Shown here piece after piece: positions 1 through 36,171 of a stretch of DNA of 64,000 nucleotides; the stretch's first letter is position 1, and each line of letters opens with the position of its first letter. Source of the stretch: a virus (taxonomy: Duplodnaviria; Caudoviricetes); the IMG/VR virus record IMGVR_UViG_3300010352_001543; one strand, given 5' to 3'. The position numbers and the translations under genes were made by a program. The notes beneath the pieces were generated by a model. The model was not told where the DNA came from. It ran no database searches and saw nothing but the letters and a program-made list of their open reading frames with translations.

Positions 1-424
1 GTGGTCTTCTTGCTGATGTATTTCCTTCAGCTGTCATAATCCCTGTGGTAGAAACAGCTACAACAACACCAGTATGTCCTGTTCCATCTCCATTCGACCA
101 ACTGATAGCAACACCCGGAACAGCTTCTTTATAATTCTTAGAAAAAAGACCAGCTCCGGAGTGTTGGGAACTTGCACTATAATAACTTCTTCTTGGTTGA
201 TTGTAATTGAAATGCTTGTCTGTCCAATAAGAAGTAGAAGTCACGAAACTAGCACACCAGGGATTTCCATCCCGGTGAGGAGAAGCATTTTCACTCTTTA
301 ACCATTTAGTTAATAAAGGTCCTCTGTTGTCTCCGCCTGATTCATAGATATAATTAGTTTTTCCTCCATCAAATGTTAGAATCCAATTACAAAGCCAAGC
401 TCTTTTTTCTGCCGCTGATGCCAT
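1..424 (-). CDS. CHAP-domain peptidoglycan hydrolase, 3' end runs off the window
   Basis: Not in ORF track. Manual translation from ATG at 424: MASAAEKRAWLCNWILTFDGG...GNPWCASFV...GTGHTGVVVAVS...TAEGNTS, containing the CHAP Cys (WCASFV), His (GHTGVV) and EGN motifs. Confidence 0.85.
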   Translation of the reverse strand, partial: MASAAEKRAWLCNWILTFDGGKTNYIYESGGDNRGPLLTKWLKSENASPHRDGNPWCASFVTSTSYWTDKHFNYNQPRRSYYSASSQHSGAGLFSKNYKEAVPGVAISWSNGDGTGHTGVVVAVSTTGIMTAEGNTSARRP

Positions 425-441
425 TTAGTTATAAAATATTT

Positions 442-954
442 TTAAAATATAACGCTATTTTCTAAAATGTTAGCTTCATTTTTTCCTTCTTCTTGAATAG
501 TAGGAGGAAACAAATCTTTCGCTACATTCATCCCTTTGTTCTTCAATGTCTTTAGAAGATTATGAAATTTAGTTCTTCGTGGGTCAATGTTGGTAGTCTT
601 TTCAATATACTGGTCTCTGATATTAAAAGTTGAACCTTTTGTCTCTTCTTTCTTCTTGACTGTATTGAATTTTGTTTTGAAATCTGATATCTCAGGAATA
701 AAAACAATAGTATCTTTGTCTAGTGAATAAGGATTTGAAATACCATTGAACTTCAGAATGAAATCAAAATAGTTCTCGGTTCTGTAAGCCACATAGCTAA
801 CAAGGTCAGGACGCATTTCCATGTCCGAAACATAAAACAAATCAATAATACGAACACCGGTACTTGATTGACCAATTACCGGTTCACATAAATTTACTAT
901 TTGTTCACCATTTTTTAAAAATAATGGTTTTGCATTTAAAATTGTTGAATCCAT
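442..954 (-). CDS. baseplate wedge protein, T4 gp53-like
   Basis: RPDLVSYVAY...FILKFNGISNPYSL is the gp53/LysM-like baseplate motif; neighbours are structural genes. Confidence 0.7.
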   Translation of the reverse strand: MDSTILNAKPLFLKNGEQIVNLCEPVIGQSSTGVRIIDLFYVSDMEMRPDLVSYVAYRTENYFDFILKFNGISNPYSLDKDTIVFIPEISDFKTKFNTVKKKEETKGSTFNIRDQYIEKTTNIDPRRTKFHNLLKTLKNKGMNVAKDLFPPTIQEEGKNEANILENSVIF

Positions 955-12298: not shown

Positions 12299-12934
12299 CT
12301 AAGCCAAATATTCTGTTGGATCAAAACCTTCTAATGCTTCTTTTCGTTCGTTGCAAGTGCCGCAAGTGCCGCAATGCTTTTCAGTTCCTTTGTAGCAACT
12401 CCAAGTATTCGAAAAATCTACACCGTTTTTATGTCCTCTGAGGGCAATATCTCTTTTGGTGATATTCGTGTAAGGAGCAAGAATGTTAATATTTGTTTCT
12501 GTTCCATATGCAATCGCGTTACTCATTTCGTGTATAAACGTTGATCGACAATCAGGATAGATTGCATGGTCACCGGCGTGGTTTGCTATCAATATTTTCT
12601 TTGCGCCAATACTTTCTGCAAGACCGGCGGCAATACTAAGCATGATACCATTTCTGAAAGGCACTACTGTCTTCTTCATCATTTCATCTTCGTAATGACC
12701 ATCCGGAATTTCTCCACCTGACTTCAAAAGATCAGAAGCAAAATATTTATTGATAAAAGGCAAGTCAATAACTATATGTTTTATTTTTAATTTTTTGCAA
12801 TTCTTCTTAGCGAATGCTATTTCTTTGCTGTTATGTTTACTACCGTAATTAAAGCTAACAGCAAGCTTAATGTCGTTTTTATATTCATTTAGAAGAACGG
12901 TCGAATCCATTCCACCACTGTATATTATTAACAT
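12299..12934 (-). CDS. queC: 7-cyano-7-deazaguanine synthase
   Basis: SGGMDS PP-loop, VVPFRNGIMLS, YPDCR, TWSCY, CGTCGTC zinc site. Confidence 0.95.
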   Translation of the reverse strand: MLIIYSGGMDSTVLLNEYKNDIKLAVSFNYGSKHNSKEIAFAKKNCKKLKIKHIVIDLPFINKYFASDLLKSGGEIPDGHYEDEMMKKTVVPFRNGIMLSIAAGLAESIGAKKILIANHAGDHAIYPDCRSTFIHEMSNAIAYGTETNINILAPYTNITKRDIALRGHKNGVDFSNTWSCYKGTEKHCGTCGTCNERKEALEGFDPTEYLA

Positions 12935-27099: not shown

Positions 27100-27327
27100 T
27101 TTTATTTCTCCTTAATTTCCACTGGAAAGAAATCAGCTAAAGAATTTCTCATCAATTCAATTGATTCTTTCACAGAATCAAATAAAAAAGTACGACAATA
27201 TGCTTCAGCATTTTCTAATTCAATTGTGGAATTCAATAATTTCATATCCGCTGAATAATCCAAAAGATCATTTTCGATAGATAGTTTATTCTGTTTTTTG
27301 TCTAAGTAAATATAATACATTTTTTAA

Positions 27328-27435
27328 TCCTAAAATTATTAGTGTTGTTATTTAATTTATATAGTATAGACGTCACTGATGGAATTTTATTGTAAATAAA
27401 AAGAAAGAATTTCAAAATAAATTGAAATTCTTTCT
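27328..27435 (-). promoter_or_regulatory. repeat module B
   Basis: Hairpin plus TTTACAATAAAATTCCATCAGTGACGTCTATACTATAT and ACTAATAATTTTAGGA leader. Confidence 0.85.
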
Positions 27436-27437
27436 GA

Positions 27438-27600
27438 TGATAGGAGCAGGATTCGAACCTACATGAAGCGTACCAAGTGGATGTTATGCCATCTCTTCAC
27501 TGTCAGGCCTCCGTTTTGCGTTCGGAGCCAAGCTCATCGCTGAATGCTTCTTAGTTATGAGCCATATATTAGCGTCTAAAACCAATTCCGCCATCCTATC
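27438..27600 (-). ncRNA. tRNA-like RNA (163 nt) with anticodon region replaced by a multi-hairpin insert
   Basis: GATAGGA/TCCTATC-A acceptor stem, TG, D arm GCGGAATTGGTTTTAGACGC, T arm GTAGG-TTCGAAT-CCTGC; no anticodon arm. Confidence 0.75.
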
Positions 27601-27613
27601 AAAATATAATATT

Positions 27614-27949
27614 CTACTTTTTTAAATATTTTTTAATTGTCGCTAACATAACATAATCAGGAACAGCATATTCGAAATAACCATCCAAAGTATTACTTAA
27701 TTCGGAATAATCGGAGGTAGGACGATTATTTACAAAGTCTTTCTTTTTAGCTATAGCTAAAATTTCTGTAGCAACATTTTTAATATAATTTAGTTTATCT
27801 TGTACCGATTGTGAACGATCCATTAGTACAAGTTTACCACGTAAATCTTGTATATGATCCATGACATCAGAAGTTTTCTTATATCCTATATTAACAGCCA
27901 ATCCATTTTCGTTTAAAAATTCATTGCTTGTCATTACATATTTTTTCAT
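27614..27949 (-). CDS. putative internal head protein with capsid-targeting-like leader
   Basis: MKKYVMTSNEFLNE leader; AATATATAA at 27975-27983. Confidence 0.6.
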   Translation of the reverse strand: MKKYVMTSNEFLNENGLAVNIGYKKTSDVMDHIQDLRGKLVLMDRSQSVQDKLNYIKNVATEILAIAKKKDFVNNRPTSDYSELSNTLDGYFEYAVPDYVMLATIKKYLKK

Positions 27950-30618: not shown

Positions 30619-30975
30619 TTAGTTATTGAAACCTAAATTGTTTTGTGGAAATCTGCCGATACTTTCTTTCAATGCAAGAATGTCGTTTGTTGCTTCTTTT
30701 AATGTGATCAATGAATAGTATGAAGATCCGTAAACATCGTTTGATTTCTTTTTACGATCGCCTGATTCTAAGTCATATGACTCATCGTCACCGTATCCAC
30801 CGGTTACCCTAATTGATTTTTTATTGACAGTTTTGACTGTTCTTTTTTCATAAGTGTAATAAACACCTAATTGCGGGTTGTGACGTTCCATCATTCTAAC
30901 ACACGTATCACCTTTTTTCAAATCTCTGATTGTGATTGCAGTGTTTTCATTTTTTAATTCTTGTTGCTCGTTCAT
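30619..30975 (-). CDS. hypothetical protein, intact paralog of 34730-35116
   Basis: DLKKGDTCVRMMERHNPQLG.YYT.EKRTVK shared; first gene after module C. Confidence 0.75.
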   Translation of the reverse strand: MNEQQELKNENTAITIRDLKKGDTCVRMMERHNPQLGVYYTYEKRTVKTVNKKSIRVTGGYGDDESYDLESGDRKKKSNDVYGSSYYSLITLKEATNDILALKESIGRFPQNNLGFNN

Positions 30976-30984
30976 TTTTTTAAA

Positions 30985-31086
30985 TCCTAAAGTTATTAGT
31001 TGTTATTTAATTTATAATATATAGACGTTGCTAATGGAATTTTATTGTAAACAAAAAGAAAGAATTTTCGAACGAAAATTCTTTCT
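30985..31086 (-). promoter_or_regulatory. repeat module C
   Basis: Hairpin plus TTTACAATAAAATTCCATTAGCAACGTCTATAT and AACTAATAACTTTAGGA leader. Confidence 0.85.
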
Positions 31087-33646: not shown

Positions 33647-33704
33647 AACTTACCTGTTTATTGCGTTAAACTCATAAGTACTACTTTTCCTATATGAGAA
33701 TGAG

Positions 33705-33792
33705 ATATTTAAAATAATAAAGACGAAGCAAGTGTAATTTTATTGTAAACAAAAAAGAAAGAATTTTCAATTTATTTTAGAAAATTCTTTCT
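33705..33792 (-). promoter_or_regulatory. repeat module D
   Basis: Hairpin plus TTTACAATAAAATTACACTTGCTTCGTC; divergent leader. Confidence 0.8.
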
Positions 33793-33822
33793 GATGATAT
33801 AAATCACAGGAACATTGACAAT

Positions 33823-34149
33823 TTATTTTTGGACGAGGTTTTTTTCTAAATCAACGGTGTACCAGTAACTATCCCAATAAACATATGCTTCCCCGTCTTT
33901 AGCATCAAATGCCCAAATTTTGGAACTGAAAAGAATGTCGTTGTTATATCCGCCTTTAAAAGTAATTGTATCCCCTATTTTCAGACCAAATTTTTCATTT
34001 TTATCTGTAAACATAGAAGATGGTTTGCTTTTAACCCATTTGTCAATATCATCTTTCATCTTTGGGTAAAACTTCGCATAAAGATCTATAACTTTTTGTT
34101 TCATGGATTCATTTAAGAATTCTTCACTTGTCAATACATGTTTTTCCAT
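33823..34149 (-). CDS. putative internal head protein with capsid-targeting-like leader
   Basis: MEKHVLTSEEFLNES; AATATATAA at 34179-34187. Confidence 0.6.
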   Translation of the reverse strand: MEKHVLTSEEFLNESMKQKVIDLYAKFYPKMKDDIDKWVKSKPSSMFTDKNEKFGLKIGDTITFKGGYNNDILFSSKIWAFDAKDGEAYVYWDSYWYTVDLEKNLVQK

Positions 34150-34164
34150 ATTTTTACTTTTTTT

Positions 34165-34258
34165 TGTTATTATTTAAATTATATATTAAAGACGTTAATA
34201 ATGGAATTTTATTGTAAACAAAAAAGAAAGAATTTCAATTTATTTTGAAATTCTTTCT
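34165..34258 (-). promoter_or_regulatory. repeat module E (variant containing AATATATAA)
   Basis: Hairpin plus TTTACAATAAAATTCCATTATTAACGTCTTTAATATATAA. Confidence 0.85.
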
Positions 34259-34260
34259 GC

Positions 34261-34350
34261 TGGTAGGAACAGGACTTGAACCTATATATAACTGAGCATA
34301 TCATCAGAGTTACCGCTTATTGCCTGTGTCTGCCATTCCACCATCCTACC
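34261..34350 (-). ncRNA. tRNA-like RNA (90 nt) with degenerate anticodon arm
   Basis: GGTAGGA/TCCTACC-A acceptor, D arm GTGGAATGGCAGACAC, T arm ATAGG-TTCAAGT-CCTGT, extra hairpin TAAC..CTGA/TCAGTTA; no canonical anticodon stem-loop. Confidence 0.7.
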
Positions 34351-34356
34351 ATATTA

Positions 34357-34710
34357 TTAATCTACTGAAACAATTTTGAAAACAACAACGAAGTTGCTAT
34401 CTTTTGGCCAAGGTTTCCAATCTTCCCAATCATCGACTATATCAATCACAATTCCTTTTTTAGCGGCTTCGTCTTTTAATCTATCAGCAGTCGATTTTGA
34501 AGTTACTCCATGCCTATAGAAGAATCCTCGTTTAGCTACAATCGTTCCATCTTTCTTGAAAGTTATTTTATCGATTCCAGTATAAGTTGACTCGAAAAAA
34601 TTCTTTACCACTTTTTTAGTTTTAGCATCTAAAACTTTATCTACCGAAACTTCATCATCTTCATTTAAAGAATTACTCAAAAATTCTTGTCTTGTTTTTA
34701 CATTATTCAT
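34357..34710 (-). CDS. putative internal head protein with capsid-targeting-like leader
   Basis: MNNVKTRQEFLSNSLNE leader; ends 6 nt before the tRNA-like RNA. Confidence 0.55.
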   Translation of the reverse strand: MNNVKTRQEFLSNSLNEDDEVSVDKVLDAKTKKVVKNFFESTYTGIDKITFKKDGTIVAKRGFFYRHGVTSKSTADRLKDEAAKKGIVIDIVDDWEDWKPWPKDSNFVVVFKIVSVD

Positions 34711-34729: not shown

Positions 34730-35116
34730 TTATTCGAAACCTAAGTCATTTGAAGGTGTTCTTCCACCACGTCCATCTTTTGCTTTTTGCATTTCTACTT
34801 GTGCTTGTTTCAATGTGATTAAAGTATACCATGCTGAGCCATAAACGGATGTTTGTTTTCCTTTGCGCTGTCCGGATTCTAAATCATAAGATTCGCCTCC
34901 AAATTCTTTTACACTTATTGATTTAGTAGCAACTGATTTCACTGTTCTTTTTTCAAAAGTATAGTACGTTCCGAGTTGTGGGTTATATCTTTACATCATT
35001 CTGACACAAGTATCACCTTTTTTCAGATCTTTAATAGTTTCAGCTTCTTCGCTTTCATTTAATTGATTTAAAGATTCATTCAAGAATTCTTCGCTGTTCA
35101 TAACATATTTTTTCAT
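34730..35116 (-). pseudogene. leader-tagged paralog of 30619-30975 interrupted by in-frame TAA
   Basis: MKKYVMNSEEFLNESLNQLNESEEAETIKDLKKGDTCVRMM*RYNPQLGTYY; TAA at 34991-34993 where the paralog has Glu (GAA). Confidence 0.8.
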
Positions 35117-35139
35117 AGTTTACTTTTTTTTATTATAAT

Positions 35140-35185
35140 ATTTATTTTATATATTAAAGACGTCAATAATGGAATTTTATTGTAA
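35140..35185 (-). promoter_or_regulatory. repeat module F (promoter only, AATATATAA variant)
   Basis: TTACAATAAAATTCCATTATTGACGTCTTTAATATATAA without the hairpin. Confidence 0.75.
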
Positions 35186-35421
35186 TTGAATATGAAAATT
35201 AAATTATGTACAACCTTTTGGTTTAATTTTACCAGATTTTAATTCATCTTCGACCTGTTTTCTCATTGAATTAATAAACCAATCATCTTTTGTAAAATAT
35301 CCTGAGCAAGTCCTATATAAATCAATGTAATCAACTTTAGTTATGTTCGATGGTATTTCGGGGGCATAAATCTTTGTTAAATAAATGCAAGATTTGAATG
35401 TATTTTTCATTTTTGTACTAA

Positions 35422-36171
35422 CTACTGAATATATTCTTTATTGAATGCTTCTTCCGATCCCATCATCTCAATCATTTTTTCTTTCCAACCTCCATCTCTA
35501 CTTTGGATAACATCCCAGCTGATATGTATATAGTTGCATCCGTTCCGGAGATTTTCAGCGTCATCACAAAGAGTATAGAAATGTGTTGGTTCGAAACTTT
35601 TCATTTCTTCTACCCATTCTTCTTTGCTCATTGGTGTTGATGAAATGATTAGATTATCAATTTCATAAGGCAATTCTAAATCCACTTGTTTCAAAAAATC
35701 ACCTTGTTCGTCCCTTGTAGCGTATGCAAAATTATCATAATAACAAGCATCAATTTTACGAACATCAGTTCCATAAAATACAACATCCTTTAAAGATTTA
35801 GCATAAAATATACTGTTCTCTGTTGAAGTAGTATCAATCTTACCGTTAATTAACCGATGTACTTTGACATCCTGATCTCTTAAGTGTTTGTTCAAACACT
35901 TTCTTGTATGCTCCAAACGGGAAGATTTTCCGAGCAGAACAATATTTTTGTTTGTATTATATTTTATATACCAAGTAAGGTACAATATTGTAGTTCTGGT
36001 AACACCAACCTGACGGGCATTACATATAACTGTTTTTTGATTTGATTCGAATGACTCTATCATTCTCTTTTGATGGCCCATCAACTTGATCTGACTACCA
36101 TCTTCCCATTTACAACAATTTTCTATAAAGTAAATAGGATCATTTTCATATAATATCTCTTCGTTTGTCAT
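35422..36171 (-). CDS. terminase large subunit-like ATPase domain, degenerate, no nuclease domain
   Basis: DPIYFIEN, GHQ, ARQVGVT (Walker A Lys lost), YYDNFAY (Walker B Glu lost), IISSTP, F.KEY. Confidence 0.7.
   Translation of the reverse strand: MTNEEILYENDPIYFIENCCKWEDGSQIKLMGHQKRMIESFESNQKTVICNARQVGVTRTTILYLTWYIKYNTNKNIVLLGKSSRLEHTRKCLNKHLRDQDVKVHRLINGKIDTTSTENSIFYAKSLKDVVFYGTDVRKIDACYYDNFAYATRDEQGDFLKQVDLELPYEIDNLIISSTPMSKEEWVEEMKSFEPTHFYTLCDDAENLRNGCNYIHISWDVIQSRDGGWKEKMIEMMGSEEAFNKEYIQ

Follow-up and report, generated by a model that had tools for sequence, protein, structure and literature searches.

The locus at 27438–27600 raises the question of what kind of RNA is made from a gene that has the ends and the elbow of a tRNA and no anticodon arm. 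It lies in a 64,000-nt stretch of DNA (from here on the window) of a virus of the Caudoviricetes (IMG/VR record IMGVR_UViG_3300010352_001543; 161.6 kb, 30.7% G+C, estimated to be 71% complete). The initial annotation, made from the letters of the window, had described a tRNA mimic in which three hairpins replace the anticodon arm, had set it apart from tmRNAs and group I introns, and had considered its structure to be under selection.

Almost all genes are on the minus strand. Among the PHROG matches are an exonuclease of the DNA polymerase type, a fragment of a terminase and a protein of 709 aa (PHROG 1735). Of cultured phages, the Cellulophaga phages phi17:2 and phi4:1 are closest, at 53% amino-acid identity; with 71–73%, uncultured huge phages are more similar. 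With Cellulophaga phages and uncultured huge phages as nearest relatives, the host is probably a member of the Bacteroidota. A 249-aa ORF (35422–36171, minus strand) covers no more than a part of the profiles of the terminase large subunit (PHROG 5989 and PHROG 2) and may be one piece of a split terminase gene.

The tRNA-Leu frame and its insert

The 163-nt RNA gene is read on the minus strand from 27600 to 27438 and has the frame of a tRNA-Leu. Its parts and its immediate neighbours are the following.

27438–27600, minus strand: whole element, 163-nt tRNA-Leu-framed RNA gene, called neither by ARAGORN nor by Rfam
27594–27600, minus strand: acceptor 5′ strand GAUAGGA, pairing with 27439–27445
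27572–27591 (RNA 10–29), minus strand: class II (Leu-type) D arm, 3-bp stem and long loop with G18G19
27463–27571, minus strand: 109-nt insert between D and T arms, made up of an A/U linker, H1, H2 and H3
RNA 30–37, minus strand: A/U linker at the 5′ end of the insert
27531–27563 (RNA 38–70), minus strand: H1, 7-bp stem and 19-nt loop
27506–27529 (RNA 72–95), minus strand: H2, 5–7-bp stem with a bulge and 9-nt loop
27463–27500 (RNA 101–138), minus strand: H3, 6-bp outer stem and inner GAUG/CAUC hairpin, at the position of the variable arm
27446–27462 (RNA 139–155), minus strand: T arm GUAGG-UUCGAAU-CCUGC with canonical loop
27438–27445, minus strand: acceptor 3′ strand UCCUAUC and discriminator A73, CCA not encoded
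27402–27435, minus strand: intrinsic terminator, 14-bp stem and T run, beginning 3 nt past A73
27614–27949, minus strand: 111-aa ORF, its stop codon 13 nt 5′ of the first base of the RNA

The acceptor stem, the Leu-like D arm and the canonical T loop had been described as intact, and they are. All seven pairs of the acceptor stem (RNA 1–7/156–162, GAUAGGA/UCCUAUC) are Watson-Crick pairs, U8 and G9 are both present between the acceptor stem and the D arm, and the latter has a 3-bp stem, G13/A22, and G18G19 within a long loop; tRNA-Leu genes from related phages have an almost identical D arm. Residue 48, directly 5′ of the T arm, is a pyrimidine (U). A73 is followed by UCA, so that the 3′ CCA is absent from the gene. 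The initial annotation had singled out this ATCA in place of ACCA; the sequence is as stated but no peculiarity, since the genes of normal tRNAs in related phages do not encode CCA either. No gene for a CCA-adding enzyme was found in the 161-kb phage record. The element is indeed a GC-rich island, with 46.6% G+C against 27–28% in the 500-nt flanks, and the insert (45.9% G+C) shares in it.

Compared with class II tRNA-Leu (RF00005), the RNA has in common the 7-bp acceptor stem, U8, the 3-bp D stem with a long GGAAUUGG-type D loop, the T arm, A73 and the lack of an encoded CCA. It differs in having 109 nt where the anticodon and variable arms belong, and it cannot decode. A decoding tRNA was rejected because there is no 5-bp anticodon stem with a 7-nt loop and U33 at the expected place, and a normal class II tRNA-Leu because there is neither a Leu anticodon in a normal loop nor a short variable arm (H3 has 38 nt).

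In none of the modes used (standard, intron, lowered threshold and tmRNA) did ARAGORN produce a credible model for the 163-nt element, in keeping with its description as a tRNA mimic without a usable anticodon arm; with introns forced and the threshold lowered the program returned a poor Tyr(AUA) model with a 71-nt intron. Rfam 15, searched at gathering scores over the whole window, gave no hit for the element. RF00005 reached 18.5 bits in a 56-nt partial alignment versus a gathering score of 29, and at E ≤ 10 the region 27300–27750 yielded this partial tRNA match and noise, without a ribozyme, riboswitch, tmRNA or Y-RNA model. A tmRNA was rejected because the RNA has U3-A70 rather than G3-U70, contains a D stem (the point already made in the initial annotation), measures 163 nt versus at least 260 nt, and was negative with ARAGORN -m and Rfam. 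Likewise a tRNA-Leu interrupted by a group I intron was rejected because the insert has 109 nt versus at least 200 nt, no stem halves flank it and no Rfam intron was matched at E ≤ 10.

If the RNA were a precursor that is spliced to a canonical tRNA, removal of the right segment should yield one. Every internal segment whose deletion leaves 72–96 nt was therefore removed by brute force. None of the 875 derivatives is a credible tRNA: the best has an ARAGORN score of 101.7, where genuine tRNA-Leu genes of relatives have 109–119, and the isotypes assigned vary among Tyr, Ser, Ile, Ala and Phe without once being Leu.

The roughly 110 nt between the arms (109 nt by our count) had been said to fold into three hairpins, and H1, H2 and H3 all appear in the minimum-energy fold. 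In the centroid structure H1, most of H2 and the inner hairpin of H3 are kept and the outer stem of H3 is absent. H3 with its 38 nt occupies the position of the class II variable arm, and the insert takes the place of the anticodon arm and the variable arm together. Replacement of the anticodon arm, as originally proposed, was thus right with respect to the missing arm and too narrow with respect to the rest.

Stability above that of shuffled sequence is not shown for the three hairpins of the insert. The minimum free energy of the insert has a z-score of −0.84, with 99 of 500 dinucleotide shuffles folding equally well; taken singly, H1 (z = −1.6) and H2 (z = −1.8) are both marginal and H3 (z = −0.25) is not supported in its outer stem; the whole RNA has a folding z-score of −1.56. 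A six-way junction of acceptor, D, H1, H2, H3 and T helices might not permit a normal tRNA core.

Homologues of the insert were found neither by blastn against INPHARED, nor by pattern scans of IMG/VR, nor by a scan of JGI metagenomes, nor by BLAST against the full records of 35 related phages. The relatives offer no orthologous intergenic region by synteny, because conservation there is limited to the 709-aa protein and the 124-aa protein next to it. Antisense targets of the insert beyond those expected by chance were not found in the 161-kb phage record.

The paralogue at 34261–34350 and the repeated intergenic module

A second gene with the same frame lies 6.7 kb from the 163-nt element, and scaffold and terminator are common to both.

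34261–34350, minus strand: 90-nt paralogue with the same frame, its 40-nt middle consisting of a 12-nt stub and a hairpin at the variable-arm position
34225–34258, minus strand: terminator of the paralogue, with the stem found at 27402–27435 and an inverted loop

When the 15 frame pairs of the two RNAs were compared, 12 were identical, three were changed on both sides and none was broken or changed on one side only. The three compensatory pairs are 2-71 (A-U in the 163-nt RNA, G-C in the paralogue), 11-24 (C-G and U-A) and 49-65 (G-C and A-U). Since all three stem differences between the copies are compensatory and none is broken, the tRNA frame is under selection for pairing at the RNA level. 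The earlier proposal of selection on structure therefore stands for the frame; it is not shown for the insert hairpins, which are no more stable than shuffled sequences and have no homologue in the collections searched.

The paralogue is reported by ARAGORN as tRNA-Ala(AGC) (34259–34351, minus strand), the sole 'tRNA' reported in the whole 161-kb record. This identity was rejected because of U3-A70, which is not the alanine identity, the Leu-type D arm and the stub in place of an anticodon arm. The ARAGORN score of 105.2 compares with 109–119 for the real tRNA-Leu of relatives. For annotation it means that the tRNA-Ala(AGC) call in the window is an error of the same kind as the failure to recognize the 163-nt gene. 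The variable-arm hairpin of the paralogue contains CUGAUGA. The two terminators (27402–27435 and 34225–34258) have identical 14-bp stems, and their 6-nt loops are mutually reverse complementary, i.e., inverted.

Both RNA copies begin 6–13 nt past the stop codon of a small ORF (27614–27949 and 34357–34710, respectively) and end at a terminator. The 111-aa ORF at 27614–27949, which has no PHROG match, and the 163-nt RNA probably share one transcription unit. The terminator of both RNAs is part of an intergenic module of about 90 nt, which occurs in five copies between 27.3 and 35.2 kb; a tRNA-like gene is present in two of the five.

27319–27407, 30974–31062, 33672–33760, 34141–34229 and 35109–35197, read on the minus strand: intergenic module, terminator hairpin followed by conserved boxes

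On the minus strand the order within the module is the hairpin and then the conserved sequence TTTACAATAAAATTCCAT...ACGTCT...TATATAA just 5′ of the next gene. The module probably unites a terminator with a phage promoter from which the next gene is transcribed. As a mark of promoters the motif AATATATAA was also tried and discarded, as it is not enriched (6 found versus 5.4 expected).

At 33780–33800 (minus strand), downstream of ORF 33823–34149 and ahead of the 33.7-kb module, stands TATCATCAG. These 9 bases also occur at the 163-nt gene, where they run from its 3′ end into the beginning of the terminator. The sequence at 33780–33800 may be what is left of a third tRNA-like gene that was deleted.

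Leu-framed RNAs without anticodon arm in phages and prophages

The 163-nt element is one of many. Pattern scans that required nothing but a Leu-type D loop and a T loop at a distance of 90–129 nt returned many single genes of 100–176 nt, in each of which the acceptor stem is perfect, the D arm is of the Leu type, the T arm is canonical and an anticodon arm is lacking. With tandem tRNAs left out, IMG/VR and GTDB loci gave 84 unique oversized Leu-framed elements with at least 54 clusters of unrelated inserts, in phages and prophages mostly of Bacteroidota. The 163-nt RNA passes the same filter (perfect acceptor stem, Leu-type D arm, canonical T arm, at least 100 nt, no embedded normal tRNA, location in a phage or prophage). 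Of 28 distinct insert types compared as a subset, 23 have A as the discriminator, and the 28 inserts share neither a k-mer nor a motif beyond what shuffled sequences show. The Rfam tRNA model passes several family members at 31–38 bits with a large insertion.

In the GTDB representative genomes nine of ten pattern matches are such elements, eight of the nine from Bacteroidota. Flanking genes of phage type (portal, CI-like repressor, NinG) were found at the four bacterial loci that were checked, which indicates that the elements in bacterial genomes lie within prophages. The family is present in prophages of the cultured strains Bacteroides graminisolvens DSM 19988, Dysgonomonas macrotermitis DSM 27370 and Sphingobacterium corticis KCTC 42248; its function can therefore be tested directly.

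Among the contigs related to the phage, the closest carries an element of about 150 nt (L181) beside a normal tRNA-Leu(UAA) (L183). A second relative carries two elements (L017:3103-3188 and L199), and in the relative with L199 the element again occurs beside a normal tRNA-Leu. Across the family the gene context is heterogeneous, so that the neighbours do not point to a function: in about half of the members examined an upstream ORF is at most 65 nt away, and in the other half none is close.

Three subfamilies with 14, 7 and 4 unique members permitted a comparison of inserts and stems. Insert identity is 90%, 92% and 83%, respectively, and acceptor-stem identity 69%, 84% and 57%, yet the acceptor strands are always paired; the argument from insert conservation rests on these other subfamilies, and recent transfer of whole cassettes could partly inflate the identities. 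In the largest subfamily (cluster 1, 14 members) four acceptor pairs are compensatory, and the whole RNA is 92–95% identical versus 31–44% for the 400 nt on either side. Because insert identity exceeds acceptor identity and the flanks diverge, the inserts are under no less constraint than the stems, and the gene for the RNA moves or persists as a unit in otherwise unrelated neighbourhoods. The invariance of the D and T arms within the family sets is imposed by the search patterns. Covariation in the inserts of the other subfamilies is not shown, their sequences being too similar.

In full-text literature searches no published description of a Leu-framed anticodon-less family was found. The family, a variant of phage tRNA-like stable RNAs, is thus large, widespread and apparently undescribed, and the 163-nt element joins it as a new member whose insert is also new.

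The loci examined contain several other unusual tRNA-like genes. A distinct subfamily (L028:3412-3514; L170, 2330–2590, minus strand; the elements of L065 and L126) has an acceptor stem UGU.../...ACA, discriminator G and a giant variable arm of 30–70 nt. An anticodon-like hairpin is retained in this subfamily; its loop, YUGUCUC, is conserved and would read as GUC. In L017:3103-3188 and L025/L026:~12550-12629, both from relatives of the phage, the anticodon stems close loops of 19 and 18 nt, respectively, rather than of 7 nt, and ARAGORN misses both. In L184 (~1490–1760) and L171:2649-2930 a tRNA-Leu is apparently interrupted after the anticodon-loop CUU/CUA by long structured inserts; in these records of related huge phages the inserts are probably genuine group I introns. 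The G+C-rich oversized element in L173 (~300–520, minus strand) holds within its insert a second T-arm-like hairpin, GAGGG-UUCAAUU-CCCUC, i.e., a nested tRNA-like module. The Rfam DUF2693-FD RNA motif occurs at L055:791-839, L131:506-554 and L152:576-626, at distances of 0.1 to 6.5 kb from Leu-framed elements in the same short viral loci.

Possible functions and rival explanations

Taken together, the sequence comparisons argue, with a probability of about 0.7, that the element is a functional non-decoding tRNA-framed RNA derived from tRNA-Leu. We propose that it would form the final segment of a short transcription unit (small ORF, 13 nt, RNA, terminator), that RNase P would cleave before G1, and that the 3′ trailer would be trimmed and CCA added by a host enzyme. 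The tRNA frame would confer a defined shape and high stability on an RNA that would be unable to read codons, and the 109-nt insert would be the lineage-specific working part, binding RNA or protein. Alternatively the frame would act as a decoy of, or competitor for, a factor recognizing class II tRNAs, which might be LeuRS or a defence nuclease that cleaves tRNA. Within the reading as a functional tRNA-framed RNA, the insert as effector and the frame as decoy are weighted almost evenly, with a slight preference for the former.

Bacterial LeuRS needs A73 and the tertiary core and makes no use of the anticodon; leucylation of the 163-nt RNA would be possible. In phage T4 a kit of Pnkp and RNA ligase repairs tRNA cut by host anticodon nucleases. 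The record of our phage encodes comparable genes for RNA/tRNA repair outside the window.

G000:C1:12327-13397: Rnl1-type RNA ligase
G000:C1:17205-18188: T4-type Pnkp (AAA_33 and HAD_PNKP, 138 bits)
G000:C1:20332-21426: second RNA ligase (RNA_ligase and PHA02142 OB fold)

Because the record encodes Pnkp and RNA ligases as in the T4 repair kit, the phage lineage likely faces tRNA-directed defences. The idea of a decoy becomes more plausible, by analogy, through the work on Septu and retron-Eco7, which cut the variable loop of class II tRNA-Tyr and are counteracted by phage tRNA-Tyr as a supplement or decoy (PMC13096335).

Could the element instead be a decaying tRNA-Leu pseudogene, whose anticodon and variable arms were destroyed by insertions and which has no present function? 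The absent anticodon arm, insert hairpins that are not significantly stable, an insert without homologue in the collections searched and the many degenerate-looking tRNA genes with odd loops in related phages would all fit. In the frame, however, 15 of 15 pairs and all elbow nucleotides are intact, and the stem differences to the paralogue are solely compensatory; moreover, G+C is far above background throughout the insert (45.9%; element 46.6%), each copy has its own strong terminator, and 84 sequences show the same architecture, their frames being perfect and their inserts conserved. We therefore regard a pseudogene as unlikely. Slightly less likely again is that the element is mainly a signal for processing or stability of the 3′ end of the upstream small-ORF mRNA, the tRNA shape recruiting RNase P, as does the mascRNA of MALAT1, or blocking exonucleases, so as to set the half-life of that mRNA, and the released RNA being a by-product. 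This would explain why both copies begin 6–13 nt past the stop of a small ORF and finish at a terminator, and why about half of the examined family members lie at most 65 nt from an upstream ORF. The other half has no close upstream ORF, though, the 14-bp terminator hairpin already protects the 3′ end, and a minimal tRNA shape would suffice, yet the insert is long, G+C-rich and, in other subfamilies, better conserved than the stem of the acceptor.

A tRNA with an unconventional intron, which would be excised to give a decoding tRNA-Leu and might be sealed by the Pnkp and Rnl1-type ligase that the phage encodes, has in its favour that tRNA introns have been reported in phages of Bacteroidota (10.1101/356790), that the loop of H1 holds CUAAGAA and UUCAGCG, i.e., the Leu anticodons AAG and CAG after U, and that related records contain genuine group-I-like interrupted tRNA-Leu genes (L184 and L171). 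It is improbable nevertheless: no anticodon-stem halves flank any possible intron, exhaustive single deletions reach an ARAGORN score of 101.7 at best with inconsistent isotypes and never Leu, the forced intron mode gives the poor Tyr(AUA) model, a match to group I or another ribozyme in Rfam is absent at E ≤ 10, and the supposed anticodon varies among close subfamily members (GAU, GAA, GAC). Most improbable of all is a miniature tmRNA-like rescue RNA with a 17-codon ORF of the insert (MSLAPNAKRRPDSEEMA-stop) as template of the tag. Such an ORF does run from position 64 to a UAA within H3, and true tmRNAs are encoded by related phages; against it stand U3-A70 in place of G3-U70, the full D stem, the lack of a long helix and of pseudoknots, the ARAGORN tmRNA search, which was negative even at lowered threshold, the lack of an Rfam tmRNA match, a tag without the usual hydrophobic Ala-Ala ending and the unrelated inserts of other family members. 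The ORF is most simply due to chance.

The reading as a functional non-decoding RNA may be carried further, tentatively and with the odds against it. The upper half of tRNA-Leu could serve phages, and especially phages of Bacteroidota, as a chassis for interchangeable, sequence-constrained RNA modules, which would be matured and perhaps leucylated like tRNAs and would act as decoys or inhibitors of host factors recognizing class II tRNAs (e.g., nucleases of the Septu or retron type, which cut the variable arm) or as tRNA-framed regulators. If true, the modules would be a new class of RNA-based effectors of counter-defence or host takeover, and this phage would bear two different ones in a repeated terminator-promoter cassette. 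Phage tRNA genes are weapons against host nucleases that cleave tRNA, and a large set of tRNA-shaped non-decoding RNAs has so far been invisible to tRNA finders and Rfam. Should these be decoys, sponges or tRNA-framed regulators, they would add a new layer to RNA-based phage strategy and be a natural counterpart of the engineered 'tRNA scaffold'.

In engineered tRNA scaffolds, the mascRNA of MALAT1 and the tRNA-miRNA units of gammaherpesviruses a tRNA frame provides an unrelated RNA with RNase P/3′ processing and stability; these systems are eukaryotic or artificial. The phage element differs from tRNA scaffolds and mascRNA in that the cargo replaces the anticodon and variable arms of a leucine-type frame. 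With bacterial YrlA (Y RNA-like) it shares being a non-coding RNA with a tRNA-like elbow. The ends of YrlA RNA lie in the Ro-binding stem and not in an acceptor stem, and the 163-nt element had no Rfam Y-RNA match at E ≤ 10 (27300–27750).

From the Lak megaphages of Prevotella, Devoto et al. described tRNAs of excess length whose introns are called 'enigmatic' (preprint 10.1101/356790). These, too, are from large phages of Bacteroidota and could not be classified by bacterial tRNA finders; they differ in keeping the anticodon arm and in being resolved as tRNA plus intron with eukaryotic settings (10.1101/356790), whereas the 163-nt RNA has no anticodon-stem halves and is not rescued by any deletion.

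By analogy, the closest known counterpart appears to be the species 1 RNA of phage T4 (rnaC, 139 nt), as an analogue rather than a demonstrated homologue. Like the 163-nt RNA, it and species 2 RNA (rnaD, 119 nt) are phage-encoded and have the size of stable RNAs (120–160 nt), and in rnaC the T arm is canonical (CCGGG-UUCGAAU-CCCGG), the 5′ end pairs with the 3′ end, and long hairpins lie between the two ends. The acceptor stem of rnaC is imperfect, however, and a Leu-type D arm is lacking; in the fold of rnaD the tRNA arms are absent. The genes of rnaC and rnaD sit inside the T4 tRNA cluster, whereas the 163-nt element has no tRNA neighbour, and sequence similarity between the 163-nt RNA and rnaC or rnaD is not evident by eye. 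If the Leu-framed RNAs are decoys, sponges or tRNA-framed regulators, the puzzle of T4 species 1 and species 2 RNAs, now 50 years old, might find an explanation.

The small ORFs at 27614–27949, 33823–34149 and 34357–34710 (minus strand) have unrelated bodies and a common N-terminal leader (MKKYVMTSNEFLNE, MEKHVLTSEEFLNE, ..RQEFLSNSLNE). Internal protein I of T4 starts with MKTFKEF, and its gene is located just upstream of the T4 tRNA/rnaC/rnaD cluster.
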